The position numbers and the translations under genes are program-made. From positions 1 through 26,614 of IMG/VR virus record IMGVR_UViG_2703719347_000005: DNA of 26,614 nt; one strand, written 5' to 3'. This stretch comes from a virus (Duplodnaviria > Heunggongvirae > Uroviricota > Caudoviricetes). The notes below the pieces were generated by a model that was not told the origin of the DNA, made no database searches, and was given only the letters and a program-made list of their open reading frames with translations. Position 1 is the first letter of the stretch. Each line of letters begins with the position of its first letter. This document shows, in pieces, positions 3,934-26,614 of the stretch.

Positions 3934-4353
3934 TTAGCCAGCTGATTTAATGATGTACGTAACCACCCCGAACACGTCGAGAGTGTCCTCACTACCGACG
4001 ACTATTGGCGAATATGCAGGGTTCATTGGGTTAAGCTGAACCCGCGGATGCAGTTGCAGCTTCTTAACGGTGAATTCCCCATCCACAGCAGCAATAACGA
4101 TATCGCCATGAACTGCTGTTCTTGAGCTATCCACGACCAGAAGATCACCTTCCCCTATGCCTGCGTCTTTCATGCTGTCGCCGGCGGCTTTGACAAAATA
4201 CGTCGCACTTGGGTGGTTAACGAGCAACTCGTTCAGATCAATACGTTGCTCAACATAATCCTGCGCTGGACTAGGAAAGCCGCACTGCACAAGGTCACTG
4301 TACAACGGGAGCAGCATGATCTGGCGTAACTCAACGGGCGTGTAGAACTGCAT
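3934..4353 (-). CDS. umuD: UmuD, LexA-like self-cleaving accessory subunit of polymerase V
   Basis: 139 aa from ATG 4351-4353 ([13 protein letters not shown]...). Conserved Cys-Gly cleavage site (LVQCGFPSP), Ser (GDSMKD) and Lys (TVKKLQL) present. Confidence 0.9.
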
Positions 4354-4816: not shown

Positions 4817-4934
4817 GAAATATCTGGAAGCTTTAGGCATCTTCTTGGAAGATAGACGAGCGCAAAGACGCACACAGCAATGATGTTATGTAGTATTTTC
4901 CCCTTGAGTGTGCCTGCTCAAGGGGATTTTTTAT
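4817..4934 (+). repeat. Direct repeat copy 1 (~118 bp), homologous to 7965-8079, ending in an intrinsic terminator
   Basis: Shared GAAATATCTGGAA, a 22-bp identical core GCGCAAAGACGCACACAGCAAT (4860-4881 and 8008-8029), and a terminator hairpin with conserved loop. Confidence 0.6.
4900..4934 (+). terminator. Rho-independent terminator (plus strand) overlapping the 3' end of the invertase gene
   Basis: CCCCTTGAG-tgtgcctg-CTCAAGGGG followed by ATTTTTTAT. The minus-strand version has no U-tract, so it is not the invertase terminator. Confidence 0.6.
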
Positions 4935-5487
4935 CGCCGCATTGTACCGGCAAATTTTTGTAAATAGTCTTCACATCTACGCCTATCACATCTGCGATCT
5001 GTTGCCGAGTAGCGCCGTTCTCCAGCATTCTGCGGCACCGCTCCACCACTTCTTCAGTCATTACCCGGCGGCGGCCGCCGACTCTCCCCTGCTCCCTCGC
5101 TGCGGCTAACCCGGCTCGGGTACGCTCCACTATCAGCTCGCGCTCCATTTCTGCCAGGGCGCTCATGACGTGGAAGAAGAATCGCCCTGCTGGCGTCGAA
5201 GTGTCGATCGAGTCGGTAAGGCTGCGGAAATTCACCCCACGCGCCTGCAACTCTGACACGAGCGTAATCAGATCGCGCACGCTGCGGCCCAGCCGATCCA
5301 GTTTCCAGACCACCAGCACATCACCCGGGCGGAGCCGTCGCAGCGCTCGCTTCAAACCTGGCCGCCGGGCATTCTTCCCGCTGGCCATATCCTCGAAAAC
5401 CAGCTCACATTCTGCGCGGATCAGCGCGTTTTTCTGTAAATCGAGGTTTTGATCCCCGGTTGATACCCTCGCATAGCCAATCAGCAC
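4918..5487 (-). CDS. Serine DNA invertase, Gin/Hin/Pin/Cin family
   Basis: MLIGYARVSTGDQNLDLQ...VVWKLDRLGRS...FRSLTDSIDTSTPAGRFFFHVMSALAEMERELIVERT closely matches Gin/Pin over the catalytic domain. GTG start at 5485-5487 with SD AAGGAG 7 nt upstream. C-terminal ~45 aa diverge from what I recall of Gin/Pin. Confidence 0.9.
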   Translation of the reverse strand: MLIGYARVSTGDQNLDLQKNALIRAECELVFEDMASGKNARRPGLKRALRRLRPGDVLVVWKLDRLGRSVRDLITLVSELQARGVNFRSLTDSIDTSTPAGRFFFHVMSALAEMERELIVERTRAGLAAAREQGRVGGRRRVMTEEVVERCRRMLENGATRQQIADVIGVDVKTIYKNLPVQCGDKKSP

Positions 5488-5510: not shown

Positions 5511-5539
5511 ATTGTAAAAAGCCGCGGCCATTCGCTCAA
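5511..5539 (-). promoter_or_regulatory. Putative sigma70 promoter of the invertase gene, -35 overlapping crossover site L
   Basis: On the minus strand: -35 TTGAGC (5539-5534), 17-bp spacer, -10 TACAAT (5516-5511). The -35 hexamer lies inside the left half of the 26-bp site. Confidence 0.3.
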
Positions 5540-5556
5540 ACCCTCGTTTGGGCGAA
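5531..5556. other. gix/hix-like 26-bp recombination site L
   Basis: TTCGCTCAAACC-CT-CGTTTGGGCGAA: two 12-bp half-sites (TTC....AAACC) around a 2-bp core, as in gix/hix/cix. Exact reverse complement occurs at 11080-11105. Confidence 0.65.
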
Positions 5557-5923
5557 GCCTCTTTTTGGAGCAAAAAACATGGCCGAACTTAACCCGCCAC
5601 TGGGCACGACGACGCCGGAAATATTCATGGACAACGTTAAGCGCGCTGACGAGCTGGTTAACGGTCCGGCCGGAACGGTTGACGACCGCGGCGGTGAACC
5701 ACTCGATACCTGGCGCCAGATGATGGCGAAAAACGATGAGGTCAGGCAGAACCTGATCCCGCTCAGTAAGCAATACCAGACGCTGGCAGCGGCGCAGGCG
5801 GATATCGCGAATATTCCGGTGGGGTCGACCACGTATTACCGTAGCCCGGATGACAACGCGTTAGCTGTAGAAGTGATCAATAACGCCGGTACGCTGCAGC
5901 CTACCGGGCGGAAAATGCCATCT
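5531..5923. repeat. Left arm of ~390-bp inverted repeat (site + RBS + first ~115 codons of fibre A)
   Basis: First 48 bp are 100% identical to revcomp of 11058-11105; the next ~345 nt are roughly 85-90% identical by eye to the fibre B 5' end. Confidence 0.85.
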
Positions 5924-8897: not shown

Positions 8898-11057
8898 TCA
8901 CAACGTGATTTCAAACATGACGCAATAGTTATCCATACGGATAACCTCGCTATTAAGGGTAAAACTGATAATGTCGCCCTGGCTGTCACGCAGACAACCG
9001 CGCGGCCCGGTCAGGCGACCCGGTGACTGGCCGGTGGTGCCGCCGTGAAAGGCATACTGAAGAATGGCCCCGGCAGGGATATCCGCTGCCGTTGAGACAG
9101 TCACCGCGTCATAACGGATATTGAGGCTGGTCAGCGGGATAATCGCACGTGTGTCAGGGTGCAGTAGCCGGAAACCATAATTACCCGGATCAGAAACAAT
9201 GCTGGTATCAAAGCTCAGCCGACCCACCGGATTCAGCCACACCGTAGCGGCGCGGCCCTGGCGTTGATGACTAACTGGCATCAGTGGTTTTGCCGCTTTG
9301 CCGTCAACCAGCGCCCGCTTTTCCATCACGGAAATATAAAGCCCCTGAATATAGGAACTTCTGGCGGTGAGGTGTGCGCCATCCGTGTAATCGTGAATGT
9401 ACATCGGGTTCGTGAGATAGACATTTTCGCGTGTCTGCGCCAGCTCCAGCAGCGCCATCGGAATGGTGGGATAGGCTGTGTTCGGCGTCCGGTTTATCCA
9501 GCTGCTGAACTGATAAACAAAAATCGGCACATGGACTTCTTCGCCGCACACAGCTGAGGCGTGGGCATCGATCCGCTGTTGCATGGTGTCGAAAATAGCC
9601 TGATAGTCTGCTTTGGTGGTGCCTTTCGTCTGGTCTGCTTCGCCCTGCATCCAGTACATCGCCACAGGCCGGTAGGTTTTCCCGAGCTCCTGAGCGCGGG
9701 CGTAACCATAACTGATATCATCGAAAACTCGCTGAATGTACTTTCCGGGATACGCCGCCAGCACATCAATGGGTTGACCGCCCTCCGCCGGAACAGAACC
9801 CAGAATGATCAGATCATCCGGGTTAAAGCCATAGTTCTCGGCAATCATCAGTTCGTACCAGCCGCGAATGCTGGCCCCCATTGGGGTTTCCCATGCCTGG
9901 CCGTTATCGGTGTTTTTATACGTCTCGACGTAGGGAACCAGCTGAGCATGGTTTTCTGCCGAAGTGCCGGAGCCATCCTGCGCCCGTGCCCCACCGATAA
10001 AACGCAATGCGGTATACAGCGCGGCTATCGTAATCAGGGCCTGAGTATTCACGCCAGCGGCAAGCGATTGTCCGTAACCGATTTTATGGGCAATATCCGG
10101 CAGGCGTGAGTAAATGGACTGATTAAAATAGCGCAGAAATTCAGGGGAAATAATCGCTTTAACTTCCAGAGTTTCGGCTTTCAGCGATTTTACCTCTCCA
10201 TGATTCGCTTCAATTTTCCCCGCAGCAAATGCCCCGTTTTTTTTGATACCCACAGCCGGACGATTTAACGTATCACGCCACGCCATAACGAAATCGCGGA
10301 ATGTCGCAGTAGAAATGCTGGCGTTGGCTGGTAACCCTAAGATACTGGCAATCGTAAGATTGTTGATCTCAGCCTTCCCTGATTTCAGTACCCCTTTTTT
10401 ATTAATGGCAAAACAAAGCCGTTTAAGGGTGTCATAAACTGAAACAGCGTTACCGTCAGCCACTAATGATAAAGCAGAATTCCCGATATTCAGACGTGAT
10501 GACGAGATGATCGACGAAATAAATTCATCCGCTGAGAGCTTTTTTAATTCTGCTTTATTCGCCTTAATCCACCCGGCAAGCAACCGGCCCGCCTCATCCA
10601 GCCCTACCGAATAATTTTTTCGTTCATCCATAAAGGCAAGAGACATACCCGCTGGCGCATTCTGGCTGAACGTTGCTCTGATCAAATCAGTCATGATATT
10701 GACCAGCTCCTGAGATGGCATTTTCCGCCCGGTAGGTTGCAGCGTCCCGCCGTTATTCATGTACTCGTCCGCCAGCGCCCAGACGTCCTGGCTGCGAACA
10801 TAGGTCGTGGAGCCAACGGGGATATTCGCGATATCTGCCTGCGCTGCCGCCTCATTCATATACTGCTTGCTGAGTGGGATCAGGTTCTGCCTGACCTCAT
10901 CGTTTTTCGCCATCATCTGGCGCCAGGTATCGAGCGGTTCACCTGCGCGGTCGTTAATCGTTCCGGCCGGACCGTTCACCAGTTCGTCAGCGCGCTTGAC
11001 GTTATCCAGGAATATTTCAGGCGTCGTCGTTCCCAAAGGCGGGTTAAGTTCGGCCAT
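8898..11057 (-). CDS. Alternative tail fibre B (719 aa): shared N-terminal anchor, SASA-like acetylesterase domain, extra C-terminal domain
   Basis: N-terminal ~115 aa shared with fibre A. Residues ~325-585 carry YGQSLAAG, WMQGEAD and DGAHL, consistent with SASA/DUF303-type SGNH esterases. Colinear with the tail operon, so this is the presumably expressed fibre. Confidence 0.7.
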   Translation of the reverse strand: MAELNPPLGTTTPEIFLDNVKRADELVNGPAGTINDRAGEPLDTWRQMMAKNDEVRQNLIPLSKQYMNEAAAQADIANIPVGSTTYVRSQDVWALADEYMNNGGTLQPTGRKMPSQELVNIMTDLIRATFSQNAPAGMSLAFMDERKNYSVGLDEAGRLLAGWIKANKAELKKLSADEFISSIISSSRLNIGNSALSLVADGNAVSVYDTLKRLCFAINKKGVLKSGKAEINNLTIASILGLPANASISTATFRDFVMAWRDTLNRPAVGIKKNGAFAAGKIEANHGEVKSLKAETLEVKAIISPEFLRYFNQSIYSRLPDIAHKIGYGQSLAAGVNTQALITIAALYTALRFIGGARAQDGSGTSAENHAQLVPYVETYKNTDNGQAWETPMGASIRGWYELMIAENYGFNPDDLIILGSVPAEGGQPIDVLAAYPGKYIQRVFDDISYGYARAQELGKTYRPVAMYWMQGEADQTKGTTKADYQAIFDTMQQRIDAHASAVCGEEVHVPIFVYQFSSWINRTPNTAYPTIPMALLELAQTRENVYLTNPMYIHDYTDGAHLTARSSYIQGLYISVMEKRALVDGKAAKPLMPVSHQRQGRAATVWLNPVGRLSFDTSIVSDPGNYGFRLLHPDTRAIIPLTSLNIRYDAVTVSTAADIPAGAILQYAFHGGTTGQSPGRLTGPRGCLRDSQGDIISFTLNSEVIRMDNYCVMFEITL

Positions 11058-11105
11058 GTTTTTTGCTCCAAAAAGAGGCTTCGCCCAAACGAGGGTTTGA
11101 GCGAA
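10713..11105. repeat. Right arm of ~390-bp inverted repeat (fibre B 5' end + RBS + site R)
   Basis: Reverse complement matches 5531-5923; outermost 48 bp are identical. Confidence 0.85.
11080..11105. other. gix/hix-like 26-bp recombination site R (inverted relative to site L)
   Basis: TTCGCCCAAACG-AG-GGTTTGAGCGAA on the plus strand, the exact reverse complement of site L. Confidence 0.65.
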
Positions 11106-11133: not shown

Positions 11134-14100
11134 TTAAGCAGCGTCGCCGGGGTATGTGGCGTCGTCGTACTGGTAGAACGATTCGAGGTATTCTTTTGCG
11201 GTGACCTGGCAGGTTCCGTCAGACTGCGGGGCGATCTCCTCTACAATGGCGTCGTAGACGTGGCGCGTTGAGCCGCAGAACACCAGGCGGATCGGCTCGA
11301 TGGTTGCCGACGACAGGTCAACCCGCATGGGATCATCAAACTCGCTCAGGTGCGGGACTGACAGCTGAAAATCACCCACCCGGCTCGCCACCATCAGCCC
11401 GGATGCAGAGCCATCCTGATAGCGGATTAGCGCGCGGGGATTTTCGAAAGACCAGTCCAGCGGCTCCGTAACGGTGAACGTTGTCACGCCACCAGCCGTT
11501 GTCATCGCCTCCACCAGACAGGAAATTGTGTTGTTACCCGGAATATCATCCGTGAGCACAATGCGATCGCCCGTGTTGTAGCACAGCGCGTCCAGCTCGG
11601 TAGTGGTCTGGAACGTCACCCGCTGCTGCAGGTATTTCATCAGGCGACGCATGCCGATCTGGTAGGCGTGATCCTGATTCAGTACCCCATCGAGTTTGTA
11701 GTTCTCGATTTTCACCGGCGTGGGATTATCAGGCGTCCGGCATTTAACGGTCTCCTCCGCCCAGGTAGTCCCGTTGATGTATGTCACGTCGACGCCATCA
11801 AAATCATCGTCGGACGGTACGGTAAATCCGCTCTGCAGCTCCTCCACCATCTCATGCGGAGTGATCACGCCAGTCCAGGGCTTAATCCCCTCACGGTTGA
11901 CCGTCGCCAGGCCATCACTCAGCAGAAAACGTGACTTCCCGGCATTGGCTATCTTCTGCAGCATTTCCAGCGCTGAGATACTGTCGCCCGTGGCGAAATC
12001 AAAATTTTCGCCCCGTGGCGTCCAGTACGCGGATTCCAGCGCGTTGATGGTGTCGACGTCCATCTCCAGCCCCAGCGAGTTCCCGACATGCAGCAGCGCC
12101 CCCGAAATGGTTCTGGCGGTTCCTGAGTCGTAGGCCCGCGTGGCCACAACGTTTACGCGGCGGTCCGACTGCGCCGCCAGCTTCCCACCCGTCTCAACGG
12201 TCACCGCCATCAGCGACACGCCGGGATAGGATGAAGGGCGCGTCAGCAGTCGCCCGCGCAGTGCCTGCCAGTACATCGAATCCCTGGCGTTGTTTGAGCC
12301 CTGCTCATTGCGCCGACGGCAGCGAACCTCTACCAGTCCCGGAGAACTGAGGGTGATCCGCTCAGTGAAACCTAACCCGTTGACGTTTTTCAGCGCATAC
12401 TCGCCCTGGTGACTCACCCACCCCGATCCGGAACCGTAGACGCGATACTGTATCTCCCACTCAACGTGGCGGATCCGTTTTTTGCCCTTACTGTCAAAGC
12501 CGCAAATACCGTTCGGGAAAGAGAAATTCACCTCGAACATATCGACGGTCTCATTTTCAGGGCAAACCAGGAACGGCCCCAGCCAGCTCAGCGTGTCGTT
12601 AAGACCAGTGGCCTCATAGTCGATCATCGTCCGGGCGGTGAATCCCGGCCATGACTCATCAACGGCACCGTTAACCAGGCGCGCCACCGTCGCCGTTGTG
12701 CCGTCGGTCGAGACAATGCGGTACTCATTCCCGCGGTGAGCAAGTGAAAGCCGTTGCACCCCCTCCGGCATGCCGGAAAAGGCCGTTCCCGTGGCGCTGT
12801 TATAGGCAAGCGTCACATTCGCCGTTACCGCCGGGCTGCCGCCGGTTGATGCCGTGCCGGAGGTGTAAACCGGGGCATCACCGAAAACAGCTGCAGGCAG
12901 CGAAGAGGACGTGATCTCCCCACCCGCGAACGGACTGGCCGACTCGGTTATCAGTACGGTGCCGCCGTTGTCCTGCGCAACCAGGCCGGCGCCAGTGAGT
13001 CCCTCGGTGATGGCCGCCAGCAGTCCCGACATCGAGACGTAGTTAGCCACCAGCGACACCGGGTAGGTAACTCCCTGCCAGGTGATCGTGAACGTGCTGG
13101 AGCTGGTCGAAAAATCGTAGGTGGTCGGGGCCGCACTGGCCTGGACTTTTGCCACACTCCCCCCGGTGCCGGGCACTGCAGCCTGACCGGGGGTATATGA
13201 CGCGATAAACAGATCGTAATCGACAGAGTTAAACCCCAGCGTCACCGGCATTCCAACCACCGGCGCGATCTCCGTCAGCAGCGGGCTTGCGATAACGCTG
13301 TATCCGGCCGCCGTGGTGATCTGGTAGTTCGCCTGGGCTTTCAGTTCGACCACGGCGCCAGCGACCCAGCTGGGCGGCAGTGAGTTATCGTTCTCGTCAT
13401 TATCGTCATCATCATCCGTATCCAGCCCGGTAAACGTTACGCTCGAACCGGATACGGTCATGCTGTCTGCGATAATATCGTCGGCATCCGGCGACGTCTG
13501 GGCCATATCCAGCCCGGTACCGGATGATGTCCCTCCGACCTCAGTACTATTGACCCAGTTTTCACTGCGCTCATCGCCGGAAACGTCCGCGCCTGGTGGA
13601 AAATAGGTGATGTTGAAACCCGGCAGCGTTGAAGCTGGCGTACTGCCTACCCTGATATCGCCAGTGGTATAAATCAGTTCACCGACACCGAGACACAGCA
13701 GCATCTGGACGCGCATTTTCGTAGGATCGGCGGCATCGAACCGGGTAACGGGCTGGACCACATAATCCGGGTAGATACGCACCCGGCCAAACACCTCACG
13801 AATGGCATCACCGAGTTTTGCGGTGTTGGCCCGCGCCGGGTTCAGGTCGAGACTCCGCCCTGTGGATGAGGTATAGCCGCCCGTATCGATGCGGCTCATC
13901 AAAACAAGCGAATAGGCTGCAGCGGCAACGGAGATACCGACGCCGATCCACGCGATTGTGGCGGCCTCCAGCCCGAAGGGGACCGGATAAAGCCGTACAT
14001 CACTATCAGGGCGGATCACACAGGTAGCCCACTCGCCTGGCGGAATTGACTGACCCTCAACCTCAACGGTCAGCGGTGGGACATCCCGATCGGTATAGTT

Positions 14101-14202
14101 TTCAACATTTTCCACCAGCCAGGTGCGGATACTGGTTACACCATGCTCATGCGTTTCGAGTGGTTCACCGGGAAGCCGGGACGGGTAGAAACGAATGGTC
14201 AT
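11134..14202 (-). CDS. Tail tip / central fibre host-specificity protein (1022 aa), possibly a fused I/J-like protein
   Basis: Large protein directly downstream of the NlpC/P60 gene with a 4-nt ATGA overlap. N-terminal ~100 aa include a hydrophobic stretch (AATIAWIGVGISVAAAAYSLVLM), reminiscent of lambda gpI. Confidence 0.55.
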   Translation of the reverse strand: MTIRFYPSRLPGEPLETHEHGVTSIRTWLVENVENYTDRDVPPLTVEVEGQSIPPGEWATCVIRPDSDVRLYPVPFGLEAATIAWIGVGISVAAAAYSLVLMSRIDTGGYTSSTGRSLDLNPARANTAKLGDAIREVFGRVRIYPDYVVQPVTRFDAADPTKMRVQMLLCLGVGELIYTTGDIRVGSTPASTLPGFNITYFPPGADVSGDERSENWVNSTEVGGTSSGTGLDMAQTSPDADDIIADSMTVSGSSVTFTGLDTDDDDDNDENDNSLPPSWVAGAVVELKAQANYQITTAAGYSVIASPLLTEIAPVVGMPVTLGFNSVDYDLFIASYTPGQAAVPGTGGSVAKVQASAAPTTYDFSTSSSTFTITWQGVTYPVSLVANYVSMSGLLAAITEGLTGAGLVAQDNGGTVLITESASPFAGGEITSSSLPAAVFGDAPVYTSGTASTGGSPAVTANVTLAYNSATGTAFSGMPEGVQRLSLAHRGNEYRIVSTDGTTATVARLVNGAVDESWPGFTARTMIDYEATGLNDTLSWLGPFLVCPENETVDMFEVNFSFPNGICGFDSKGKKRIRHVEWEIQYRVYGSGSGWVSHQGEYALKNVNGLGFTERITLSSPGLVEVRCRRRNEQGSNNARDSMYWQALRGRLLTRPSSYPGVSLMAVTVETGGKLAAQSDRRVNVVATRAYDSGTARTISGALLHVGNSLGLEMDVDTINALESAYWTPRGENFDFATGDSISALEMLQKIANAGKSRFLLSDGLATVNREGIKPWTGVITPHEMVEELQSGFTVPSDDDFDGVDVTYINGTTWAEETVKCRTPDNPTPVKIENYKLDGVLNQDHAYQIGMRRLMKYLQQRVTFQTTTELDALCYNTGDRIVLTDDIPGNNTISCLVEAMTTAGGVTTFTVTEPLDWSFENPRALIRYQDGSASGLMVASRVGDFQLSVPHLSEFDDPMRVDLSSATIEPIRLVFCGSTRHVYDAIVEEIAPQSDGTCQVTAKEYLESFYQYDDATYPGDAA

Positions 14203-14579
14203 CGCCAGAACTCCACTTTGACAAATCGCCGCTTAAACCGCGGCAACGGCAGAAAGGTGACGTTCGTTCCCGGGTTGCATTCCGCCACATGCAGCAGGCC
14301 ACCGATACTGACGACAATCCCCACATGGGTGACGGTCGACCCGGAATAACAGGCCACCCCGGCCCCTTCGCAGGGTTCGCAGCGCTCAAGGGTAAGCATC
14401 ATCCGGCGCGCTTCCCGGTCGAGTCCGCCGTCGTCTTTGGTGACCCCGGCAAAATCAGGCCAGAGAGGCATGCACAAATCGCGGCGTATCTCGTTCACAA
14501 TGCCGAAGCAGTCGAGCTGCGGATATACGCGCCCGCCCTTCAGCCAGGTGACTGAACGGTATTTATCAGGAATAAACAT
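14199..14579 (-). CDS. NlpC/P60-family tail protein (lambda gpK C-terminal-domain-like)
   Basis: 126 aa with DCFGIV (Cys) and HVGIV (His) motifs typical of NlpC/P60 peptidases; sits in the K position of a lambdoid tail module. Confidence 0.55.
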   Translation of the reverse strand: MFIPDKYRSVTWLKGGRVYPQLDCFGIVNEIRRDLCMPLWPDFAGVTKDDGGLDREARRMMLTLERCEPCEGAGVACYSGSTVTHVGIVVSIGGLLHVAECNPGTNVTFLPLPRFKRRFVKVEFWR

Positions 14580-14589
14580 GATGGATTCC

Positions 14590-15072
14590 TTAGCTGATAT
14601 AACGCAGTCCGGGGAAGACAGGGAGCGTGTAGCGGTAACGTGGCCAGGCGGTATCGAGGATATTCATGTAGCCCGCAGTGATCTGCACCTCTGTCGCCGT
14701 CCAGTAACCAGACTTGATTTTCAGCGTATAAGGCACTGCCGCAGGCACTGCTAAATCCGTGGAGATATAGCTCCGGTATGTCAGCGATGCAGGCAATCTG
14801 TTAGCCAGGGCATTGCGGATCGCCGTTGACACAACACCATCGATATTGCACAGGGCAAATTTCAAATCTTGCGTGCCGTCCGCATTACGCGCCGGCAGCG
14901 CAATGTCTATCGCACAGGCGGTAAACGTTACGGTATCGCCGTTCTCCGTCGTTGCCGTAATATCCTCGTAGCCCTGACACAGGTAGTGAATATCTGAGCC
15001 AACGGTGATCTGCAGCGTTTCAATGATCACCTCCGGGCCGCTGCTGGCGTAGAGGCGTTTAATCTGCGTCAT
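14590..15072 (-). CDS. Minor tail protein (160 aa)
   Basis: Assigned from position between tape measure and NlpC/P60 genes; no motif recognised. Confidence 0.4.
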   Translation of the reverse strand: MTQIKRLYASSGPEVIIETLQITVGSDIHYLCQGYEDITATTENGDTVTFTACAIDIALPARNADGTQDLKFALCNIDGVVSTAIRNALANRLPASLTYRSYISTDLAVPAAVPYTLKIKSGYWTATEVQITAGYMNILDTAWPRYRYTLPVFPGLRYIS

Positions 15073-15538
15073 GATTCGGCCACTCCTTATTCAGGGCGAT
15101 ATCAAGCAACGAACTTCCGACTATCCATTCCGGGTAATGCCCCCATCCAGACGGCGGCAATGGGCGCTCCCAGAGTTCTACTGGCGCGGTATATCTCCAG
15201 TAAAGTCCGCCTTCTGGCGTGGGGCCTTTATAAATATCCGTGAAACGACACACGTAATTTTTCAGCCCTACAGGCGTTAATAACGGTATGTTGAACCACG
15301 CCGCCCCATCTGATAACTCATCCCGAAACCACGCCTCAAAAGCCTGCGCCTGGGCATCAGAAAAAATCCAGGCCAGATCTGTTTGGGTTGGTGTCGAGGT
15401 GTAGGCACGCCGCTGCCGTGCCCGGCCAGTTACCATCTGAGTCCGTTTCAGAGGAGATACAGGAGTTAAACCAAAACTCTCTTTAAGCGGACCAGGCAGG
15501 TAAGCGGAGGGGTAATAAAGCGTTGTGGTGATAGCCAT
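15059..15538 (-). CDS. Minor tail protein (159 aa)
   Basis: Immediately downstream of the tape measure gene (stop/start overlap at 15538); no motif recognised. Confidence 0.4.
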   Translation of the reverse strand: MAITTTLYYPSAYLPGPLKESFGLTPVSPLKRTQMVTGRARQRRAYTSTPTQTDLAWIFSDAQAQAFEAWFRDELSDGAAWFNIPLLTPVGLKNYVCRFTDIYKGPTPEGGLYWRYTAPVELWERPLPPSGWGHYPEWIVGSSLLDIALNKEWPNHDAD

Positions 15539-17973
15539 CAGCTAATTTTCCTCCCCGAGGTAGTTTTCCCCATCAAGGCCTTATGCAAATCACCCTGACC
15601 GCTTGCGACTGAATTAACCGCCTTCCGGTATCCCCTTTCTGCCCCCTCATCTGCAGCTTTACGGACCAGCGCCAACGTTGCATCGGAAGGGTTACCATTG
15701 ATGGGGATATTGATTGTGGGCGAATAAATCGCGCCGCCACCTGTTGACTGGTTTGCAACTCGATCCAGAGTGGCATCCAGTTTTGCGCTGGTTTTAGCTG
15801 TCGTAACGCGCTCACCTTTCTGCAGGAGCCAGGTTCCTGTTTCGGGCACAGAGTCGATACCGTCGTGAGCCTGTCCATGAAGCGCCGATCCGATAGCAGT
15901 CATGAACACGCCAGCAGCAGCTGCCGCAGCTATTGCTTGGGTTGACGCCACCACGGGACCTACATAGGGAACACCAATCCAGGCAGTGAAGGCACTCAAC
16001 GCTGCCATTGCTACCTGAGCAGCCGCATATTGCAGTAATGCAGCCCCAACAGATTGAATGAATGTCGCCGCAAAGTCCTGAGCGTTTAATTTACCGGTTT
16101 CCGCCCAGTTAATTACCATATCAGTTAAACTACTAAACGTTTGTGTACCTACTTGCTGCATATTTGCATATAGGTTTGAATATGCAGCAGCTTGATCTGA
16201 TATTCCAGAAACGAAACCTGCGACACCATCGTTTTGTAACTCTTCTAACTTCTTATAGTGTTCCTCTTGAATTCTTAGCCTTTCATTCAGCGAGTTTTGA
16301 AGCGCTTCTTTCTTTTTATCGTATAGACTTTTTTCAATATCTCCAGACTGAAATTGATTTAAAAGCTCTTCCTGTCGAGAAGCAAAATCTTGCTGAATAT
16401 CATTATTATCCTGCATGCGTGAACGTTCACGACTACCAGAATAACGGCCAACTATTTGGTTTTCAAACCCTTGGCGGACTAATTTATTCTGTCTTTCGAG
16501 ATCTGAAACATATTCAGCTACTTTCGCATTTTCCTGATTAAGCCGTAACTCTTCCTTCTTGGAATCAAGGATTTTAGCCGCAGTTCGAAGTTGTTCCTTC
16601 TGCCCTTCAGATAATTTTTTCAGGTTTCCGCTGGTTATATCAAAATTAATCTTCTCCAGCTCGGTTACTTCTGCAGTTTTTTTACCGGTTGTTTCAATGA
16701 GGGCGGCCTGCTTCTGTAAATCAAGAAGCCTACTTTTGAAAGCGTTGTCAGTCGGATTGCTTTTTGGTTTTATTTTGGGCTGATTCTGGTTAGACTCCCC
16801 TTTTCCCAACGAAAAATCATTATCCTTAGCCGTATCAATGCCAAGATCAGAAAGAAGAGATGTGAGTCCTTTCGCTCCTCTATCTACCTGCTCCGGGGTC
16901 ATTCTTGACTTTATCGCGCGAAGAAATTGAAGACGTTTAGTTAAAAAGTCTAATTCGTCTTTTTGTTCCTTACTTTGATTCCCTCGTTTATTAAGGAATT
17001 CAATGCGCTGTGAAATATCACTTTCATCAGCAGCATTATAATTACCTGATACAGCACCTATACGAGAGCGGGTATAAGTAGCAATGGCCCCCAAGCCACC
17101 AGCAATACGCCCCACAACCCCGGCAAGGCTTATGGCTTCACCAACCAAGTCTGATAGCCCCTGAAGAACAGCAGGATCGGTGAAGACGTCACGAATGTCA
17201 TCAAGCCCATCCTGCAATGGCGTAAGGTCAACCTTAGCCAGCCCCGAAGCCATTTCCATTTTAAGACCGCGGGCGCTAGTCTCTATATCCTGAAAGAACT
17301 GATTAACCTTAACAAGGTTATCAATATCTTCTTGCGGTGGTGCGACACCAAAATCTTTTGATAGCTGGATAAACTGTTTCAGCTTCTCGTTGTTGTTGTC
17401 GAACAACGGCAGCATTTTTGACAGGTCATTACCCAGACTTTCGAGAATATTAGTTTTCCCGGCCTGAGTGGGTATTTTCTGTAATGCTTCACTGATTGCC
17501 ATCAGCTGCTTATCTGGGGATTGCTGAGCCAGCTTCTGAGCTGAAAGCCCCAAAGTATCCAGCGCCTGAGCAGCCTCACCTGATTTATTCAGGACCGCAT
17601 CGCCGACCTTATCATTAATGTCTTTGAAAATATCGGCTATGTTGTCACCGGTTAAACCGGCTTGTTCAGCAGCATATTGCCAGGATAACAAATCCTGGGT
17701 GGACATTTTAAGAGATTTTGCCCAGCGATCAACTTCTGTAACCTGCTGTGCAGTATTTTTAACAATGGCTAGCCCAGCAGCGCCAATACCAACAGCTGCG
17801 GTAGCCGCTGCAGCCCCCACAGCAATGATTGAAGAACTTACCTCTTTAGCGTCTTTTTTTACCTGGTCGCGCCACTTCTGAGAAGATCTTTCGGCTTTAT
17901 CCATGCCCTGAACAAATCCACCTACTTTAGCGATCAGGTCGATTGTTAACGTACCGAGGGACTTGCCAGACAT
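15538..17973 (-). CDS. Tail tape measure protein (811 aa)
   Basis: Gly/Ala-rich hydrophobic N-terminal segment (AVGAAAATAAVGIGAAGLAIV), long coiled-coil centre, Ala-rich C-terminal region; SD GGAG upstream of the ATG at 17971-17973. Confidence 0.85.
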   Translation of the reverse strand: MSGKSLGTLTIDLIAKVGGFVQGMDKAERSSQKWRDQVKKDAKEVSSSIIAVGAAAATAAVGIGAAGLAIVKNTAQQVTEVDRWAKSLKMSTQDLLSWQYAAEQAGLTGDNIADIFKDINDKVGDAVLNKSGEAAQALDTLGLSAQKLAQQSPDKQLMAISEALQKIPTQAGKTNILESLGNDLSKMLPLFDNNNEKLKQFIQLSKDFGVAPPQEDIDNLVKVNQFFQDIETSARGLKMEMASGLAKVDLTPLQDGLDDIRDVFTDPAVLQGLSDLVGEAISLAGVVGRIAGGLGAIATYTRSRIGAVSGNYNAADESDISQRIEFLNKRGNQSKEQKDELDFLTKRLQFLRAIKSRMTPEQVDRGAKGLTSLLSDLGIDTAKDNDFSLGKGESNQNQPKIKPKSNPTDNAFKSRLLDLQKQAALIETTGKKTAEVTELEKINFDITSGNLKKLSEGQKEQLRTAAKILDSKKEELRLNQENAKVAEYVSDLERQNKLVRQGFENQIVGRYSGSRERSRMQDNNDIQQDFASRQEELLNQFQSGDIEKSLYDKKKEALQNSLNERLRIQEEHYKKLEELQNDGVAGFVSGISDQAAAYSNLYANMQQVGTQTFSSLTDMVINWAETGKLNAQDFAATFIQSVGAALLQYAAAQVAMAALSAFTAWIGVPYVGPVVASTQAIAAAAAAGVFMTAIGSALHGQAHDGIDSVPETGTWLLQKGERVTTAKTSAKLDATLDRVANQSTGGGAIYSPTINIPINGNPSDATLALVRKAADEGAERGYRKAVNSVASGQGDLHKALMGKTTSGRKIS

Positions 17974-17991
17974 TTAATTTCTCCAGGCAAC

Positions 17992-18014
17992 AAAAAAACC
18001 CCGCCGAAGCGAGG
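17992..18014 (-). terminator. Putative intrinsic terminator downstream of the lipoprotein gene, just upstream of the tape measure RBS
   Basis: Minus-strand RNA CCUCGC-UUCG-GCGGGG (UUCG tetraloop, one U-G wobble) followed by UUUUUUUG. Confidence 0.5.
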
Positions 18015-18042
18015 TTTTGGTTTGTTTATATATTGGTTAAAA

Positions 18043-18435
18043 TTATTTAACTTTTCCCGTATAGCCCGCATTCACCTGAGCATCAGCGGAGTCTATTTTC
18101 CCATGGGAGTAAAAAATAGTATGTGCTTCAGCACCTGTATATCCACCATAGGAGTTTTTAGCATTAATGGTTATCGGAATAAGCCATCCATATCGCATAG
18201 CCCCACCTGATTCAGCTAAAATGCCATCCTTAAACCATGCTTTCTCTGGTGTACCAAAAGTATAATGAGCAGAATATGGGTCTTTTAACATCCTTCCCCA
18301 CCAATCCTTTATCTGCTGCTGATAGTTATCCGGTAACACCCCATAATCAGCCGAGTGCAACTGAACTTGGCTAGGTGGATTTGCGGCGCACGCAGTTAAC
18401 AATAATGCAAATAACATAATCGCTATTTTCTTCAT
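18043..18435 (-). CDS. Lipoprotein (130 aa) moron, putative outer-membrane lipoprotein
   Basis: MKKIAIMLFALLLTAC: classic signal peptide with lipobox LTAC (Cys16), no Asp at +2. Gene is visibly AT-richer than flanking tail genes (by eye) and has its own terminator. Confidence 0.7.
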   Translation of the reverse strand: MKKIAIMLFALLLTACAANPPSQVQLHSADYGVLPDNYQQQIKDWWGRMLKDPYSAHYTFGTPEKAWFKDGILAESGGAMRYGWLIPITINAKNSYGGYTGAEAHTIFYSHGKIDSADAQVNAGYTGKVK

Positions 18436-18498
18436 ATCCCTATCCCATTGGTTATTGTTGTACTGATGATATTGATACCTACAGCGATTTAAAAGTTA

Positions 18499-19148
18499 TC
18501 AATGCCAACTTTTCATAGCTTCTTCAAGAGATAATGGCGCTTCGTTGATGTGCGGTGCAAAGTCACTAACCTTGAACGGAGGCGTGTTCTTTGCCTTATT
18601 GATGTTAGCCAGGACAGAAGCCACCAGCGAAGCCCCCCACTCGGTACGCATCATAACGTTAAGCTGACCATACTTATTACGGTACTTTACCCACACCTGA
18701 AACTCACGAAGGCTCATTCGCTCCTGAGCCTCCGCTATGGTCCGCCCACCGATGCCGTTCATGACTAACTCACACCAGAACTCGTCTTCTCCTGTGAGTT
18801 CGTAGTCTTTCCCAGATCGTTGACTTCCTGGATGACGGCCAGCAAAGCAATAACGATCGGCCCATCGAGCGCGCCACGATCTGGGGTAGCAGTTCCAAGA
18901 ATGTCAGCCGCGGTAAACACTGGGGCGCCGTCCTGATCGCAAATATGCGCCGCAATGCGCTCAGCAATCGGGTCCGATTTCCCGTTATACGCCAGCAGTT
19001 CAGCTTTAGTGGTGTGGTAGCCCATCGGGCGCACATAGACGGTTGCGATATGCTCTTTCCTGTCACGGCCTTTCCACTTAATTTCTTTTTTCACGGGACG
19101 CCCGGTAAAGGCACCGGTTTCTTTTAACGTATCGAGAGTAAGTTGCAT
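18499..19148 (-). CDS. Tail assembly chaperone GT fusion product (by programmed -1 frameshift)
   Basis: The downstream ORF (18499-18762) is in the -1 frame relative to G and overlaps its end. Slippery GGGAAAG sits in the correct zero-frame phase (G GGA AAG). Confidence 0.6.
18765..19148 (-). CDS. Tail assembly chaperone G-like (127 aa)
   Basis: Position between major tail and tape measure genes; ends ...LGKTTNSQEKTSSGVS with the slippery site near its 3' end. Confidence 0.65.
   Translation of the reverse strand: MQLTLDTLKETGAFTGRPVKKEIKWKGRDRKEHIATVYVRPMGYHTTKAELLAYNGKSDPIAERIAAHICDQDGAPVFTAADILGTATPDRGALDGPIVIALLAVIQEVNDLGKTTNSQEKTSSGVS
18806..18812 (-). other. Programmed -1 ribosomal frameshift slippery heptamer GGGAAAG
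   Basis: Plus strand reads CTTTCCC; on the minus strand the G-frame reads CUG GGA AAG. The -1 frame continues ...DYELTGEDEFWCELV-MNGIGG... into the T ORF. Confidence 0.7.
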
Positions 19149-19191
19149 TTCAGCTCCTGAATTGAAAAGCCCGGATAACCGGGCATATTAA

Positions 19192-19683
19192 TTACGCTGC
19201 GGCCTTCGGCACCCATACGGAAGAGCCAGACCGCTGGATCGTGGCGGAGGTCGTCACAACAGCGTTACCCTGAAAATCAAACGGGAAGTCGGAAACGTAA
19301 CCCTGGAAAATGAACCAGGTGCGATCCGATGGCAGCACCAGGCCATCAACAGCATCCTCAGCGCCAGGAGCGGCGGCTGTCGGGATACTGGTTCCATCTG
19401 ACCAGCCAACCGCAAAAGTTAACGGCGTCTGATCATTCGCTTCAGCGAGACCATGCAACATAATGTGGCTGGCGTTCGTCGGATCAGCGTTAAGCCCGAC
19501 GGTTGCGGCCGCAGGCGTTTTAAGCCCCTTTTTGTAGGTTCTTGAATCCCGCTCACTCAGACAGGTATCTTCAATCTGATCGGCAGGGTTGCCGCCGGGG
19601 TTGAAACTGGTGATGCATTCAACCTCGCTGACCACGCCAGACTTGAGCACAAAAAATTGCGTGCCTTGCGTTAATACAGACAT
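19192..19683 (-). CDS. Major tail protein (164 aa)
   Basis: Start ATG 19681-19683 ([16 protein letters not shown]...) with SD GGAG, in the major-tail position. The ORF-track 5' extension to 19713 is rejected. Confidence 0.6.
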
Positions 19684-19693
19684 GTTTTGTCTC

Positions 19694-19721
19694 CATAAAA
19701 GAAAAACCCGCACAAGGCGGG
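19694..19721 (-). terminator. Intrinsic terminator-like hairpin upstream of the major tail gene
   Basis: Minus strand CCCGC-CTTGT-GCGGG followed by TTTTTCTTTTAT, between the upstream gene stop (19740) and the major tail RBS. Confidence 0.45.
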
Positions 19722-19739
19722 TCAGTTTGGGGTTGTTGG

Positions 19740-20105
19740 TTATCTGGGCGTTATCCAGTCAACATCGAAGGAATAGCGGTATCGCATTGTTTCAGGATCA
19801 CGGCTTTGTTCACCCCATCGGGTGATATAGGCCTTGCCCTCAATCGCGTCGCGTAAAGCACGGGCAACGGCGATCACGTCGGTGTCAGTATCACCATAGA
19901 CATCAACCTGCAGAGAATAGTGATCTGCATCTGGCCGCTGGTTTAGATAATTTTCAGGGTTGCCACCTATGTTTTGCCAGACTGCATAGGGGTAAACGAT
20001 ATTATCGTTCTGCATACCGAACGGATAAAGCCGCACGGGATTAGAGCCTAACAAATCCCTGACTGCCTGGCTGGCTGCGCAAACTGCAAATATTGGAGCA
20101 ATCAT
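19740..20105 (-). CDS. Tail completion / neck protein (DUF3168-like, 121 aa)
   Basis: Pattern ...NPVRLYP...IVYPYAVWQ...LQVDVYG resembles DUF3168-family proteins found upstream of major tail genes. Confidence 0.45.
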
Positions 20106-20641
20106 ACCGGCGTTCCTTTTTTAGCCGCCCGTCGCACAGCGCGATCAATGGACTTTTCCAGCTCCGCTGCGAAAATATTAATTACGTCGGTATCAACACC
20201 ATTGATCGCCGGTCGCAAAACAGGCTTTGCTGCTGCGTGCTCTGTGCCGAACTCCAGGAATCGCCAGTACCAGGTATCCCCGCCGGGATTACCTTTATCT
20301 CCGGCAGTGTTAAAGCTTTTACCCACCCTGCCTTTTCGGACGTTGGCCTTTGTATTGGCGTATTGCCTGGCGCCGCCCATCACCCCGACACGAAACGTTG
20401 GATCGCCGGTTCTGCGAAATGCCTTGCTGCTGAAACTGACCACAATGTTTTTGTAGATAGCCTCTTTGGTGAGAGGGTCATCAACCCGCGCGGCATTATT
20501 GCGCGCTCTGTCCCTGATCACGTTTGCCGCTTTACGCAGCGCTGCACGACCGGATTTATCGCGAGTGACCTGTGAGACGGCATCCAGTTTCCCCAGGACG
20601 GAATCGAGCCCAGTCAGGTTTACTTCTACGCCATCAGCCAT
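20102..20641 (-). CDS. HK97 gp10-family tail-component protein (179 aa)
   Basis: Contains WRFLEFGTEHAAAKP, characteristic of the HK97 gp10 family; 4-nt overlap with the downstream gene. Confidence 0.6.
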   Translation of the reverse strand: MADGVEVNLTGLDSVLGKLDAVSQVTRDKSGRAALRKAANVIRDRARNNAARVDDPLTKEAIYKNIVVSFSSKAFRRTGDPTFRVGVMGGARQYANTKANVRKGRVGKSFNTAGDKGNPGGDTWYWRFLEFGTEHAAAKPVLRPAINGVDTDVINIFAAELEKSIDRAVRRAAKKGTPV

Positions 20642-22969: not shown

Positions 22970-23650
22970 TTAAGGTGTCCGCAGGTTAGCGGCAAATGAG
23001 TTAATGCGCTGTGCCAGCGCGTCAATGTCGTCGCTACCGAACTCGCTTCGGCCTGCAGACTTAACACGGGCGATAAATGCCTGTGCTTCAGAACGCGAAA
23101 GCCCGACTGAATCCCTCAGCCAGGCCTCCGCATCGCGAATAGATTTGATACTGTCGATGCTCTTCATAGCCGTTACGCCAGCGAGCTCGTTGGCCGGGAA
23201 AGTACAGACGCTAATTTCCCGCAGGTAAGAGATGTTTTTGAAGATGAGCCCTGACGTGCCAACGGTGTAATCATCAGGCCCAACGGAAAACCCCACTGAC
23301 ATCCCTTCAACCGTGCCATGCTGCATGGCAGCTTTCAGGTCTTCGGCCAGGCTAAGCCCTGGAGTAAGTTGACCACGGACAAATAGCCCCTTGTCATCTT
23401 CATGCATTGCATCCCATTTACCGACCGGGATAGCACGTGTCTGGTGGTTAAAGAACATGGCCACCTTGCGACTCTGGTTAGCAATCACACCAGCGAAAGC
23501 ACCTGGCAAAATAATGTCGCCATCGGCGTCGGTGTTATTAAAAACCGAGGCATACCCTTCAAATGTTCCCTTACTGCCGTCGCCGATGAACTTGATTTCT
23601 GTCTGGTCGAAAGCCAGCGTCTTCTGAATGTCAGGCATCATAGCCCCCAT
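22970..23650 (-). CDS. Prohead protease (HK97 family)
   Basis: 226 aa between portal and capsid genes; GYASVFNNTDADGDIILPGAF-type N-terminal region typical of HK97 prohead proteases. Confidence 0.75.
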   Translation of the reverse strand: MGAMMPDIQKTLAFDQTEIKFIGDGSKGTFEGYASVFNNTDADGDIILPGAFAGVIANQSRKVAMFFNHQTRAIPVGKWDAMHEDDKGLFVRGQLTPGLSLAEDLKAAMQHGTVEGMSVGFSVGPDDYTVGTSGLIFKNISYLREISVCTFPANELAGVTAMKSIDSIKSIRDAEAWLRDSVGLSRSEAQAFIARVKSAGRSEFGSDDIDALAQRINSFAANLRTP

Positions 23651-24731: not shown

Positions 24732-24812
24732 GTAAGCGTCGTCTCAGCACCGTCTGGCAGATCCTGAAATTCCTGAGAGAATAGTGGACACCAAATATGG
24801 TGGACGCAATCC

Positions 24813-25217
24813 ATGAAATCATTAACCGCAGTGCGTAAAAAAAGCCCTAATTATCCCGTTGAGTTCAAAATCAAAATGGTTGAACTCTCGCATCGACCAG
24901 AGATCTCCGTAGCGCAACTCGCTCGTGAGCATGGGATCAACGATAATTTGCTGTTCAAGTGGCGCCAGTACTGGCGCGAAGGAAAACTACGTCCTCCTTC
25001 AACAACAGAAAACAACGTGCCTGAGCTGCTCCCGATAACACTTGATGCCGAAGATGTTGTCCCTACAACCTCCCCCCGGTCACAACCTGTAGCTGCTGCG
25101 ACACCTGAATCACTCAATATCAGCTGTGAAGTGACGTTCCGGCACGGATCACTCCGTCTGAATGGTGCCATCAGCGAAAATATCCTGAACCTGCTGATAC
25201 GGGAGCTCAAACGTTGA
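24813..25217 (+). CDS. tnpA: IS66-family accessory protein TnpA (orf1)
   Basis: 134-aa ORF with a helix-turn-helix-like region (ISVAQLAREHGINDNLLFKWRQ); stop overlaps the next ORF start. True start may be the internal MVELSH. Confidence 0.75.
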   Translation: MKSLTAVRKKSPNYPVEFKIKMVELSHRPEISVAQLAREHGINDNLLFKWRQYWREGKLRPPSTTENNVPELLPITLDAEDVVPTTSPRSQPVAAATPESLNISCEVTFRHGSLRLNGAISENILNLLIRELKR

Positions 25218-25561
25218 TCCCATTACCATCAGGGACAAAGATCTGGCTGGTCGCTGGCATCACCGATATGAGAAACGGCTTCAACGGCCTGGCGGCAAAG
25301 GTGCAGACGACGCTGAAAGACGATCCGATGTCAGGTCACGTTTTTATCTTCCGTGGGCGTAATGGCAGTCAGGTAAAGCTCCTCTGGTCTACCGGCGATG
25401 GACTGTGTCTGCTGACCAAACGGCTGGAGCGCGGCCGCTTCGCCTGGCCGTCAGCCCGGGATGGCAAAGTGTTCCTCACACCGGCACAGCTGGCGATGCT
25501 GCTGGAAGGTATCGACTGGCGGCAGCCTAAAAGACTGCTTACGTCCCTGACTATGTTGTAA
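25214..25561 (+). CDS. tnpB: IS66-family Orf2 (TnpB)
   Basis: MIPLPSGTKIWLVAGITDMRNGFNGLAAKV... is the conserved IS66 orf2 signature; TTG start overlapping the tnpA stop. Confidence 0.8.
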   Translation: MIPLPSGTKIWLVAGITDMRNGFNGLAAKVQTTLKDDPMSGHVFIFRGRNGSQVKLLWSTGDGLCLLTKRLERGRFAWPSARDGKVFLTPAQLAMLLEGIDWRQPKRLLTSLTML

Positions 25562-25609
25562 GCCTCTTTATCCTAGTCGACGCTGAATGAGCCTGGTAAT
25601 ATACCCGGT

Positions 25610-26614
25610 ATGAGCAGCTCACTTCCTGACGATATCAATGCACTGAAACGTCTCCTTGCCGAACAGGAGGCGCTGAACCGTGCCCTGCAGGAAAAGCTGA
25701 ACGAGCGTGAACGCGAAATAGACCATCTGCAGGCACAGCTGGATAAGCTGCGCCGGATGAACTTCGGCAGCCGCTCGGAAAAAGTCTCCCGTCGTATCGC
25801 ACAGATGGAAGCTGACCTGAAGGCACTTCAGAAAGAAAGTGATACCCTTACCGGTCGGGTTGACGACCCGGCCGTGCAGCGCCCGCTGCGTCAAACCCGC
25901 ACCCGCAAACCGTTCCCCGAATCACTCCCCCGCGATGAAAAACGGCTGCTGCCGGCAGCGTCATGCTGCCCGGAATGTGGAGGCTCGCTGAGCTATCTGG
26001 GTGAGGATGCCGCTGAACAGCTGGAGCTGATGCGCAGCGCCTTCCGGGTTATCCGGACTGTACGTGAAAAGCATGCCTGTACTCAGTGCGATGCCATCGT
26101 GCAGGCCCCCGCGCCTTCACGGCCCATCGAGCGGGGTATCGCAGGACCGGGGCTGCTGGCCCGCGTGCTGATCTCAAAGTATGCAGAGCACACCCCGCTG
26201 TACCGCCAGTCTGAAATGTACGGCCGCCAGGGCGTGGAGCTGAGTCGTTCACTGCTGTCGGGCTGGGTGGATGCATGCTGCCGGCTACTGTCACCGCTGG
26301 AAGAAGCGCTTCAGGACTATGTGCTGACTGACGGTAAGCTCCATGCTGATGACACGCCTGTCCCGGTGCTGTTGCCAGGCAATAAGAAAACGAAGACCGG
26401 GCGGTTATGGACCTACGTTCGTGACGACCGTAACGCCGGGTCAACGCTGGCGCCGGCGGTGTGGTTCGCTTACAGCCCGGACAGAAAAGGCATCCATCCG
26501 CAGACCCATCTTGCGGGGTTCAGTGGTGTACTGCAGGCGGATGCATACGCCGGGTTCAACGAGCTGTACCGGGATGGCCGGATAACGGAAGCCGCCTGTT
26601 GGGCTCACGCCCGC
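25610..26614 (+). CDS. tnpC: IS66-family transposase TnpC (partial, continues beyond window end)
   Basis: Starts ATG 25610 (MSSSLPDDINALKRLL...); leucine-zipper-like N-terminus, CPECGG...CTQC zinc-finger pairs, LHADDT. Open to the window end, so absent from the ORF track. Confidence 0.9.
   Translation, partial: MSSSLPDDINALKRLLAEQEALNRALQEKLNEREREIDHLQAQLDKLRRMNFGSRSEKVSRRIAQMEADLKALQKESDTLTGRVDDPAVQRPLRQTRTRKPFPESLPRDEKRLLPAASCCPECGGSLSYLGEDAAEQLELMRSAFRVIRTVREKHACTQCDAIVQAPAPSRPIERGIAGPGLLARVLISKYAEHTPLYRQSEMYGRQGVELSRSLLSGWVDACCRLLSPLEEALQDYVLTDGKLHADDTPVPVLLPGNKKTKTGRLWTYVRDDRNAGSTLAPAVWFAYSPDRKGIHPQTHLAGFSGVLQADAYAGFNELYRDGRITEAACWAHAR

Follow-up and report, generated by a model that had tools for sequence, protein, structure and literature searches.

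A lipoprotein moron cassette between the tail chaperone and tape measure genes of an Escherichia coli prophage and its possible role in superinfection exclusion

The viral stretch IMGVR_UViG_2703719347_000005 (Caudoviricetes; 26,614 nt, all of which is called the window below) matches E. coli prophages, and on its minus strand lies a late operon of the usual lambdoid siphovirus type, which runs through the distal tail genes to a TipJ-type host-specificity protein. We analysed a 130-aa open reading frame (ORF) at 18043-18435 that encodes a predicted lipoprotein and lies between the genes for the tail assembly chaperones G and T and the gene for the tail tape measure protein (TMP). The locus is very probably a self-contained moron cassette in a recombination-prone slot between G/T and TMP of a lambdoid siphovirus prophage, which agrees with the moron reading of an original prediction made from the letters alone: the cassette is swappable, has its own terminator and deviates in base composition. 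What the lipoprotein does is addressed more tentatively, exclusion of superinfecting phages being one possibility. The features of the cassette, and the basis on which each was assigned, are as follows.

18018-18504, minus strand: exchangeable cassette consisting of spacer and ORF (loss of similarity to related phages)
18436-18498, minus strand: 63-bp 5' spacer of the cassette (sequence)
18043-18435, minus strand: lipoprotein ORF, 130 aa, ATG start (ORF call and translation)
18391-18435, minus strand: signal peptide, aa 1-15 (sequence)
18388-18390, minus strand: predicted lipid-modified Cys16 (lipobox and invariant alignment column)
18268-18288, minus strand: invariant motif LKDPYSA, aa 50-56 (family alignment)
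18133-18165, minus strand: invariant motif NAKNSYGGYTG, aa 91-101 (family alignment)
17988-18018, minus strand: intrinsic-terminator-like hairpin with T-run (hairpin scan and RNA folding)

The boundaries of the cassette were defined by BLASTN against related phages. Escherichia phage vB_EcoS-733R5 matched over 16460-18017 (81.6% identity) and again over 18505-20200 (97.2%), and Klebsiella phage KpF5 matched over 14000-18017 (89%) and 18490-20200 (93.7%), similarity to related phages resuming at the terminator. Within the unmatched block, 733R5 encodes an unrelated 125-aa secreted protein and KpF5 a member of the same lipoprotein family that is 43% identical to the protein found here. Positions 17900-18800 were recovered at 100% identity in ten complete genomes, while at least 14 further genomes matched, at 97%, from 18505 onward only; the same right-hand break at about 18505 was also seen against deposited phages.

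The slot was then surveyed in 79 IMG/VR contigs, chosen for a T protein with at least 89% identity to the one here. The T-TMP gap measured 484-578 bp across these contigs and an empty slot was found in none, so that replacement of one cargo by another is shown and de novo insertion is not. The cargos were of the following types.

Lipoprotein allele 1, the type found here: 23 contigs
KpF5-type allele 2 of the same family, 43% aa identity: 25 contigs
155-aa protein with two transmembrane (TM) segments, phrog_8032: 16 contigs
BamE-like lipoprotein, phrog_18614: 8 contigs
125-aa secreted protein, no PHROG match: 7 contigs
118-aa lipoprotein, phrog_7441: 1 contig

All six cargo types are envelope-targeted, and the three other cargos with PHROG matches belong to PHROGs of unknown function. 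Ends were read for five cargo types, each of which has its own 5' spacer and its own hairpin and T-run before the Shine-Dalgarno sequence (SD) of the TMP gene. The slot is thus presented here as an always-occupied, six-way polymorphic locus for envelope proteins, and the position inside the tail operon, which the original prediction had considered unusual, turned out to be the regular one: it is also the slot of gene 15 in phage HK97, and it was filled in every T-matched contig. Cargo class tracked the TMP variant over most of the gene, with nucleotide identities of 0.89-0.93 within classes versus 0.61-0.77 between classes, and barely tracked G plus T (0.92 within versus 0.89 between).

Of the properties in the Juhala/Hendrix definition of a moron, three were observed, and a fourth, an own promoter with expression from the repressed prophage, is taken up below. 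The block is alternative DNA between genes that are conserved and adjacent in relatives; a predicted terminator of its own, a hairpin with a T-run, stands 3' of the lipoprotein ORF; and its composition is deviant, the contrast being on the upstream side only. The G+C content (GC) of the lipoprotein ORF is 0.417 and that of its third codon positions (GC3) 0.359, compared to 0.504/0.568 for T, 0.531/0.562 for G and 0.553/0.585 for the tube gene. The earlier statement that the ORF is AT-richer than its neighbours therefore holds against these three genes but not against the TMP gene, which is also low (GC 0.458, GC3 0.403, with GC 0.40 across 16001-17000). The low-GC tract spans about 16000-18500 and extends beyond the ORF.

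We confirmed that the ORF encodes a protein with a signal peptide and a lipobox. In the N-terminus of the product, MKKIAIMLFALLLTAC, a basic n-region precedes a hydrophobic core and the lipobox L-T-A-C, and MKKIAIMLFALLL-TAC, set against the lipobox pattern [LVI][ASTVI][GAS]C and taken with the conserved cysteine, has the properties of a signal peptidase II substrate. In an alignment of 47 homologues the invariant positions are Cys16, L50, D52, P53, S55 and the block N91-A-K-N-S-x-G-x-Y-T-G101, and AlphaFold2 run on this alignment gave a mean predicted local distance difference test score (pLDDT) of 90.6. Compared to allelic variants, the ratio of nonsynonymous to synonymous substitution rates (dN/dS) was 0.07 (variant at 92% aa identity), 0.11 (76%) and 0.27 (98%), values indicating that purifying selection acts on the ORF. 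Because the ORF is conserved, has dN/dS ratios of 0.07-0.27 and is modelled with high confidence, it is a real gene, and a spurious reading frame was ruled out on the same grounds. Asp at position +2 after the lipidated cysteine bars outer-membrane sorting (the Lol-avoidance rule); this residue is Ala in the protein here and Asp in 0 of 45 family members, and the lipoprotein is therefore predicted to be sorted to the outer membrane. The mature part contains no further cysteine and is modelled as a folded 114-aa domain, a compact helix plus beta-sheet arrangement of a generic cystatin/NTF2-like kind.

Database comparisons of the protein returned matches to phrog_35631 (E 3e-59) and phrog_2320 (E 2e-22), both families of unknown function, and a single uncharacterised homologue in BFVD. 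No family model was found in scans of Pfam, NCBIfam and PADLOC, a sequence-profile search of the PDB matched TrwH through the signal peptide only, and Foldseek against the PDB gave nothing below E 0.2. Two other roles were considered and rejected: a spanin or lysis function, since the prophage has its lysis cassette in another place and the product is not Rz1-like and has no Rz partner gene, and a place in the virion or in tail assembly, since an exported lipoprotein is unable to assemble in the cytoplasm.

The predicted terminator was confirmed in front of the ribosome binding site of the TMP gene, 3-4 nt away from the coordinates first proposed (17992-18014). Its stem, AAAACCTCGC / GCGGGGTTTT, occupies 18018-17995 with a TTCG loop, is followed by a T-run to about 17988 and scored 10 pairs in the hairpin scan; the 71-nt intergenic RNA between ORF and TMP folds at -20.6 kcal/mol (z = -3.5 versus shuffles). 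The TMP SD (GGAG, 17984-17981) and ATG (17973) follow directly, the hairpin ending within 15 nt of the TMP start. In front of two different TMP families, family members are trailed by the form AACCTCGC-N4-GCGGGGTTTTTT, most often with ATTGCCYGGAGAAA and an ATG behind it, and the same element, with nearly sequence-invariant stems and variable loops, was found in at least 120 IMG/VR contigs. Among the IMG/VR matches listed, it stands 3' of many unrelated cargo ORFs before at least five TMP N-terminal types and also 3' of Cor genes, there before fibre genes; it was further seen 3' of ORFs resembling Q-type antiterminators, a resemblance judged by N-terminal sequence and without a profile test. 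By a rough heuristic, lipobox, signal or TM features were present in 29 of the 34 non-redundant ORFs, among the matches listed, that lie between the element and TMP. Because the same element trails so many unrelated ORFs, the hairpin is, to judge by its distribution, a junction found generally in the late operons of enterobacterial phages and is not specific to this cargo, and the idea that the terminator forms part of the lipoprotein cargo was discarded, given its occurrence after unrelated cargos, Cor genes and Q-like genes. The junction element may serve as a recombination joint for cassette exchange.

In lambdoid late operons, RNA polymerase modified by Q reads through intrinsic terminators. 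Upstream of its lysis and late genes, the near-identical prophage of E. coli 5CRE51 has a gene for a Q-like antiterminator (phrog_753, E 4e-70), and read-through at the hairpin is therefore expected; the special leakiness that had been thought necessary for TMP expression is not needed. Two more hairpin and T-run sites are present on the minus strand of the late operon, at 19169-19184 after the tube gene and at 19705-19723 after the tail-terminator gene. The annotations of HK97 and ES18 show comparable late-operon terminators, HK97 with many putative ones. A scan of the whole window with Rfam gave no match.

The evidence for a promoter in the 5' spacer is mixed. The promoter-like region proposed at 18436-18498 does contain one 9/12 match to the sigma-70 consensus (TTTAAA at 18493-18488, a 16-nt gap and TATCAT at 18471-18466), and both its -35 and -10 hexamers are retained in one diverged allele-1 copy. 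Such matches are not more frequent than expected by chance, with 11 seen over 6 kb versus 6.8 +/- 2.1 expected and no significant enrichment, and the strict consensus was found upstream of 82 family representatives 7 times, versus 7.0 expected in shuffles. The spacer promoter remains putative. Directly 5' of the ORF ATG lies a GGGATAGGGAT stretch, and this GGGATAGGGAT-ATG end is common to ES18-like cassettes.

The lipoprotein belongs to a family that is both large and unnamed. A word-indexed search gave 152 homologues, none with a name, and a full profile search gave 8,577 representatives at 50% identity (E <= 1e-3), 2,647 of them at E <= 1e-10. Nearly all members are single-domain proteins of 120-140 aa, a few being tandem repeats; rare forms include a C-terminal PDZ fusion in two members (231 and 235 aa) and a protein of three tandem domains (464 aa), and these PDZ fusions and tandem forms hint at a periplasmic protein-binding role. 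Members occur in Gamma-, Beta-, Alpha- and Epsilonproteobacteria, Planctomycetota, Bacteroidota and other phyla, and 263 IMG/VR stretches encode a relative.

Genomic contexts were surveyed in 84 clusters (80% identity, 6-kb flanks), with TMPs recognised by BLASTP clustering. A TMP gene lay within the flank, no more than five called ORFs away, in 26 of the 84 clusters. It was directly downstream of the family gene in 15, including ES18, Serratia and Pantoea; the family gene was one gene further upstream of TMP in two clusters and one or two genes downstream of it in five. In Edwardsiella the family gene stands between TMP and M, in Pseudomonas phage Medea1 between K and I, and in Brenneria and Pseudomonas putida prophages directly downstream of, and co-directional with, a cI-like S24/helix-turn-helix repressor gene. 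For the 53 clusters with no recognised TMP or J-type gene nearby, 150 sampled neighbours included HTH_3 (9), Peptidase_S24 (4) and integrases (3) together with many housekeeping enzymes. Judged from these neighbourhoods, some members of the family are chromosomal and unconnected to phages, and phages have captured the family repeatedly, a pattern similar to that of HK97 gp15 and YebO. We found no study in the literature of the family, of ES18 gp20 or of lipoprotein morons beside TMP genes; the papers on Tai and Tab concern unrelated cytoplasmic proteins.

Among known systems, the closest by position is gene 15 of HK97, the founding moron and the element that gave rise to the term, whose product is a superinfection exclusion protein that acts at the envelope and blocks genome entry in a tail-dependent manner. 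As at the locus here, G/GT is followed by a short spacer, a small ORF for an envelope protein, a terminator and then TMP; the HK97 record lists a 'moron product' Gp15, a putative terminator and the TMP start 12 nt on, compared to about 15 nt here. Both are independent additions that are absent or different in relatives. The two proteins differ, however: gp15 is a 62-aa, single-pass inner-membrane, YebO-like protein and the product here is a lipoprotein, BLASTP between them gave no alignment at E <= 100, and the terminator sequence of gene 15 is not that of the hairpin here. The function of gp15 has been demonstrated experimentally, whereas that of the lipoprotein is predicted. True homologues are found in the same slot elsewhere. 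Salmonella phage ES18 gp20 (30% aa identity) has the same motifs, lies directly upstream of TMP, is followed by the same terminator and carries in its record an annotated terminator and the remark 'possible moron; function unknown', although the TMP family and chaperone type of ES18 are different. ORFs of Klebsiella phages KpF5 and KPP5665-2 (phrog_2320; 42-43% aa identity) share motifs, slot and terminator.

The lipoproteins Cor (phi80/N15/T1 type, phrog_1119) and T5 Llp, to which the original prediction had turned as models, are similar in being small, moron-like phage lipoproteins of the outer membrane that face the periplasm (predicted or shown), and the AACCTCGC...GCGGGGTTTTTT junction element also stands 3' of Cor genes. 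Kinship was not borne out. The match to the Cor PHROG (E 0.002) covered residues 1-60 only, and hhalign against the Cor alignment aligned 20 columns, made up of the signal peptide and lipobox only; Cor has conserved cysteines and a mature domain of about 60 aa, whereas the mature domain here is about twice as long and has no cysteine pair. Neither Llp nor Ltp, the lipoprotein of Streptococcus thermophilus phage TP-J34, was listed in the fold searches, and sequence and fold searches of the PDB gave no Ltp match. Ltp is expressed from the prophage, as is proposed for the protein here, but its gene belongs to the lysogeny module and it is a Gram-positive surface lipoprotein. The tape measure protein of the incoming phage is reported to be its target (Bebeacua 2013).

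As the most reasonable reading of these data, we infer a role in lysogenic conversion or exclusion, in line with the original prediction. More specifically, and tentatively, the lipoprotein may exclude superinfecting phages at the envelope, at a step after adsorption. After export by Sec and Lsp, Lol sorting would bring it to the inner face of the outer membrane, with its domain displayed in the periplasm. In the lysogen, transcription would start from the weak spacer promoter and stop at the hairpin, leaving TMP and the distal tail genes silent, and the cell would be protected because a superinfecting phage would be blocked at a periplasmic, TMP-dependent step of DNA entry. During lytic growth, Q-modified polymerase would pass the hairpin and the lipoprotein gene would be expressed late as well. 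This post-adsorption reading is favoured because gp15, the founding occupant of the slot, acts in this way, because the neighbours around which the family clusters are TMP and repressor genes, not receptor-binding genes, because the alternative cargos are all envelope proteins, and because cargo class tracks the TMP variant far more than G/T. Purifying selection on the ORF, the lack of Asp at +2 in 45 family members and the example of Ltp, a prophage lipoprotein aimed at a TMP, also speak for it.

Several observations weigh against post-adsorption exclusion. Neither the regional scan nor the scan upstream of family members gave the promoter statistical support, no functional data on any family member were found in annotation, PADLOC or the literature, and profile, BLASTP and fold searches gave no fold or sequence kinship to known exclusion proteins. 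The invariant motifs are kept across many phyla, beside genes such as those for IMPDH, G6PD and chorismate-binding enzymes, and since they are kept in such non-phage settings, a conserved bacterial ligand is favoured over a hypervariable TMP. The co-segregation of cargo and TMP may merely reflect slower evolution of G/T. Moreover, the two alleles at 43% identity adjoin TMP N-terminal halves that are 90% identical, which shows that the coupling of cargo to TMP is not strict.

An alternative explanation, which we consider rather improbable, is that the gene is a host-fitness conversion factor with no part in phage exclusion. The product would be a periplasmic lipoprotein of bacterial origin, taken up by the phage, with an effect on envelope physiology (for example on stress tolerance, on resistance to serum or bacteriocins, or on protein quality control). 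Lambda Bor and Lom are precedents for such conversion. The very large size of the family (8,577 representatives at E <= 1e-3), its spread over Proteobacteria, Planctomycetota, Bacteroidota and other phyla, the housekeeping neighbours of many members, the invariant motifs that suggest one conserved ligand and the periplasmic-type PDZ fusions in two members all speak for it. However, the alternative cargos are all unrelated envelope proteins, as is typically seen at exclusion loci, gp15, with which the slot was founded, itself acts in exclusion, and family members recur beside repressor genes, where genes of the rex/sie type sit.

Receptor jamming in the manner of Cor and Llp appears unlikely. 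Here the lipoprotein would bind the outer-membrane receptor of the phage on its periplasmic face, close it allosterically to incoming phages and, at lysis, keep progeny from being lost by adsorption to debris. Llp sets the precedent by acting on the FhuA plug from the periplasm, and lipoproteins of this kind are reportedly frequent among coliphages; the product here is likewise a small phage lipoprotein with a predicted place in the outer membrane, its co-orientation with the late operon gives the late expression that debris protection needs, and Cor genes are trailed by a terminator and junction element identical to the one here. FhuA dependence has been described for ES18, in which a homologue is encoded. 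On the other hand, homology to Cor is limited to the signal peptide, no conserved disulfide is present and Llp did not appear in the fold searches; family genes adjoin TMP or repressor genes whereas Cor and Llp genes adjoin a receptor-binding or fibre gene, which the ORF here does not; and the family is kept in phyla and contexts unconnected to any single receptor. That the ORF is a late accessory gene, expressed on the tail-operon transcript only, with the hairpin mainly serving, by attenuation or through mRNA stability, to keep TMP expression below that of the tube and chaperone genes, is very unlikely: the promoter match is weak and of a kind no more frequent than chance predicts, a hairpin with T-run also follows the tail-terminator and tube genes (likewise in HK97) and the same terminator/SD junction precedes several tail genes in many phages, but an exported lipoprotein cannot join cytoplasmic tail assembly, members occur in immunity regions co-directional with repressors, every cargo type has a distinct 5' spacer and the GC is deviant.

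Returning to post-adsorption exclusion, a more far-reaching version can be formulated, which at this point is speculative. In it, the LKDPxSA/NAKNSYGGYxG lipoproteins would form a new, very widespread class of envelope-defence proteins, taken up time and again by temperate phages from bacterial chromosomes, and at the chaperone/TMP junction enterobacterial siphoviruses would have a dedicated exclusion locus that is always occupied. Its cargos, at least six and unrelated, would co-evolve with the TMP variant, each excluding phages with the matching DNA-entry route, and the terminator/SD junction would act as the recombination joint. If exclusion is true, several thousand unannotated small lipoproteins would gain a function, and a structurally unrelated new type would stand beside Cor/Llp, Ltp, gp15 and SieA; new in the present analysis is that the family is large, unnamed and without relation to known exclusion proteins. 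The six-way polymorphic slot is a ready set of candidate exclusion genes and a natural system for asking whether exclusion specificity matches TMP. Prophages of clinical E. coli and Klebsiella often carry the cassette, and how susceptible these bacteria are to therapeutic phages could therefore be influenced by it. If the phenotype is absent, the locus would be a textbook moron with no known benefit.

The genes of the late operon around the cassette were assigned as follows.

Tube protein gene, minus strand (Phage_TTP_11)
18765-19148, minus strand: tail assembly chaperone G (Phage_TAC_13, E 1.7e-30)
18807-18813, minus strand: slippery heptamer GGGAAAG of the canonical lambda type, near the end of G (sequence)
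18499-18762, minus strand: tail assembly chaperone T, -1 frame (Phage_tail_T, E 2e-07)
15538-17973, minus strand: TMP gene, 811 aa (Tape_meas_lam_C, E 7.5e-14; phrog_2854, E 5e-290)
11134-14202: TipJ-type protein gene

The GT chaperone label given earlier was right, as T lies in the -1 frame behind GGGAAAG and both chaperone families matched; with T open in that frame and the heptamer near the end of G, a programmed G-T frameshift fusion is expected.

Outside the late operon, the left end of the window (within 1-4353) contains the E. coli chromosomal genes ycgX, ymgL and iraM followed by an icd fragment, which places the prophage at the icd site, like e14. Genes for an umuDC-like translesion polymerase lie at about 2667-4353, in a low-GC stretch just inside the left end of the prophage. 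The 5CRE51 prophage is otherwise 99.5-100% identical to the window; it carries ISKpn26 (IS5-like) in the head protease/scaffold region (25166-26360 of the 5CRE51 stretch), which is missing from the window at the equivalent site (23060-23064), and the last 1.9 kb or so of the window (24732-26614, GC about 0.6) had no match in the 5CRE51 stretch compared. Inverted repeats of 393 nt at 5531-5923 and 10713-11105 (85% complementary) flank 4.8 kb with two opposed large ORFs, at 5579-7918 on the plus strand (779 aa, an SGNH/GDSL hydrolase according to the 5CRE51 record) and at 8898-11057 on the minus strand (719 aa), and a recombinase ORF at 4918-5487 on the minus strand adjoins the segment. The same segment is present in 5CRE51 at 100% identity in the opposite orientation, and from its sequence it looks like an active invertase-driven switch of two tail-spike/host-range genes downstream of TipJ.

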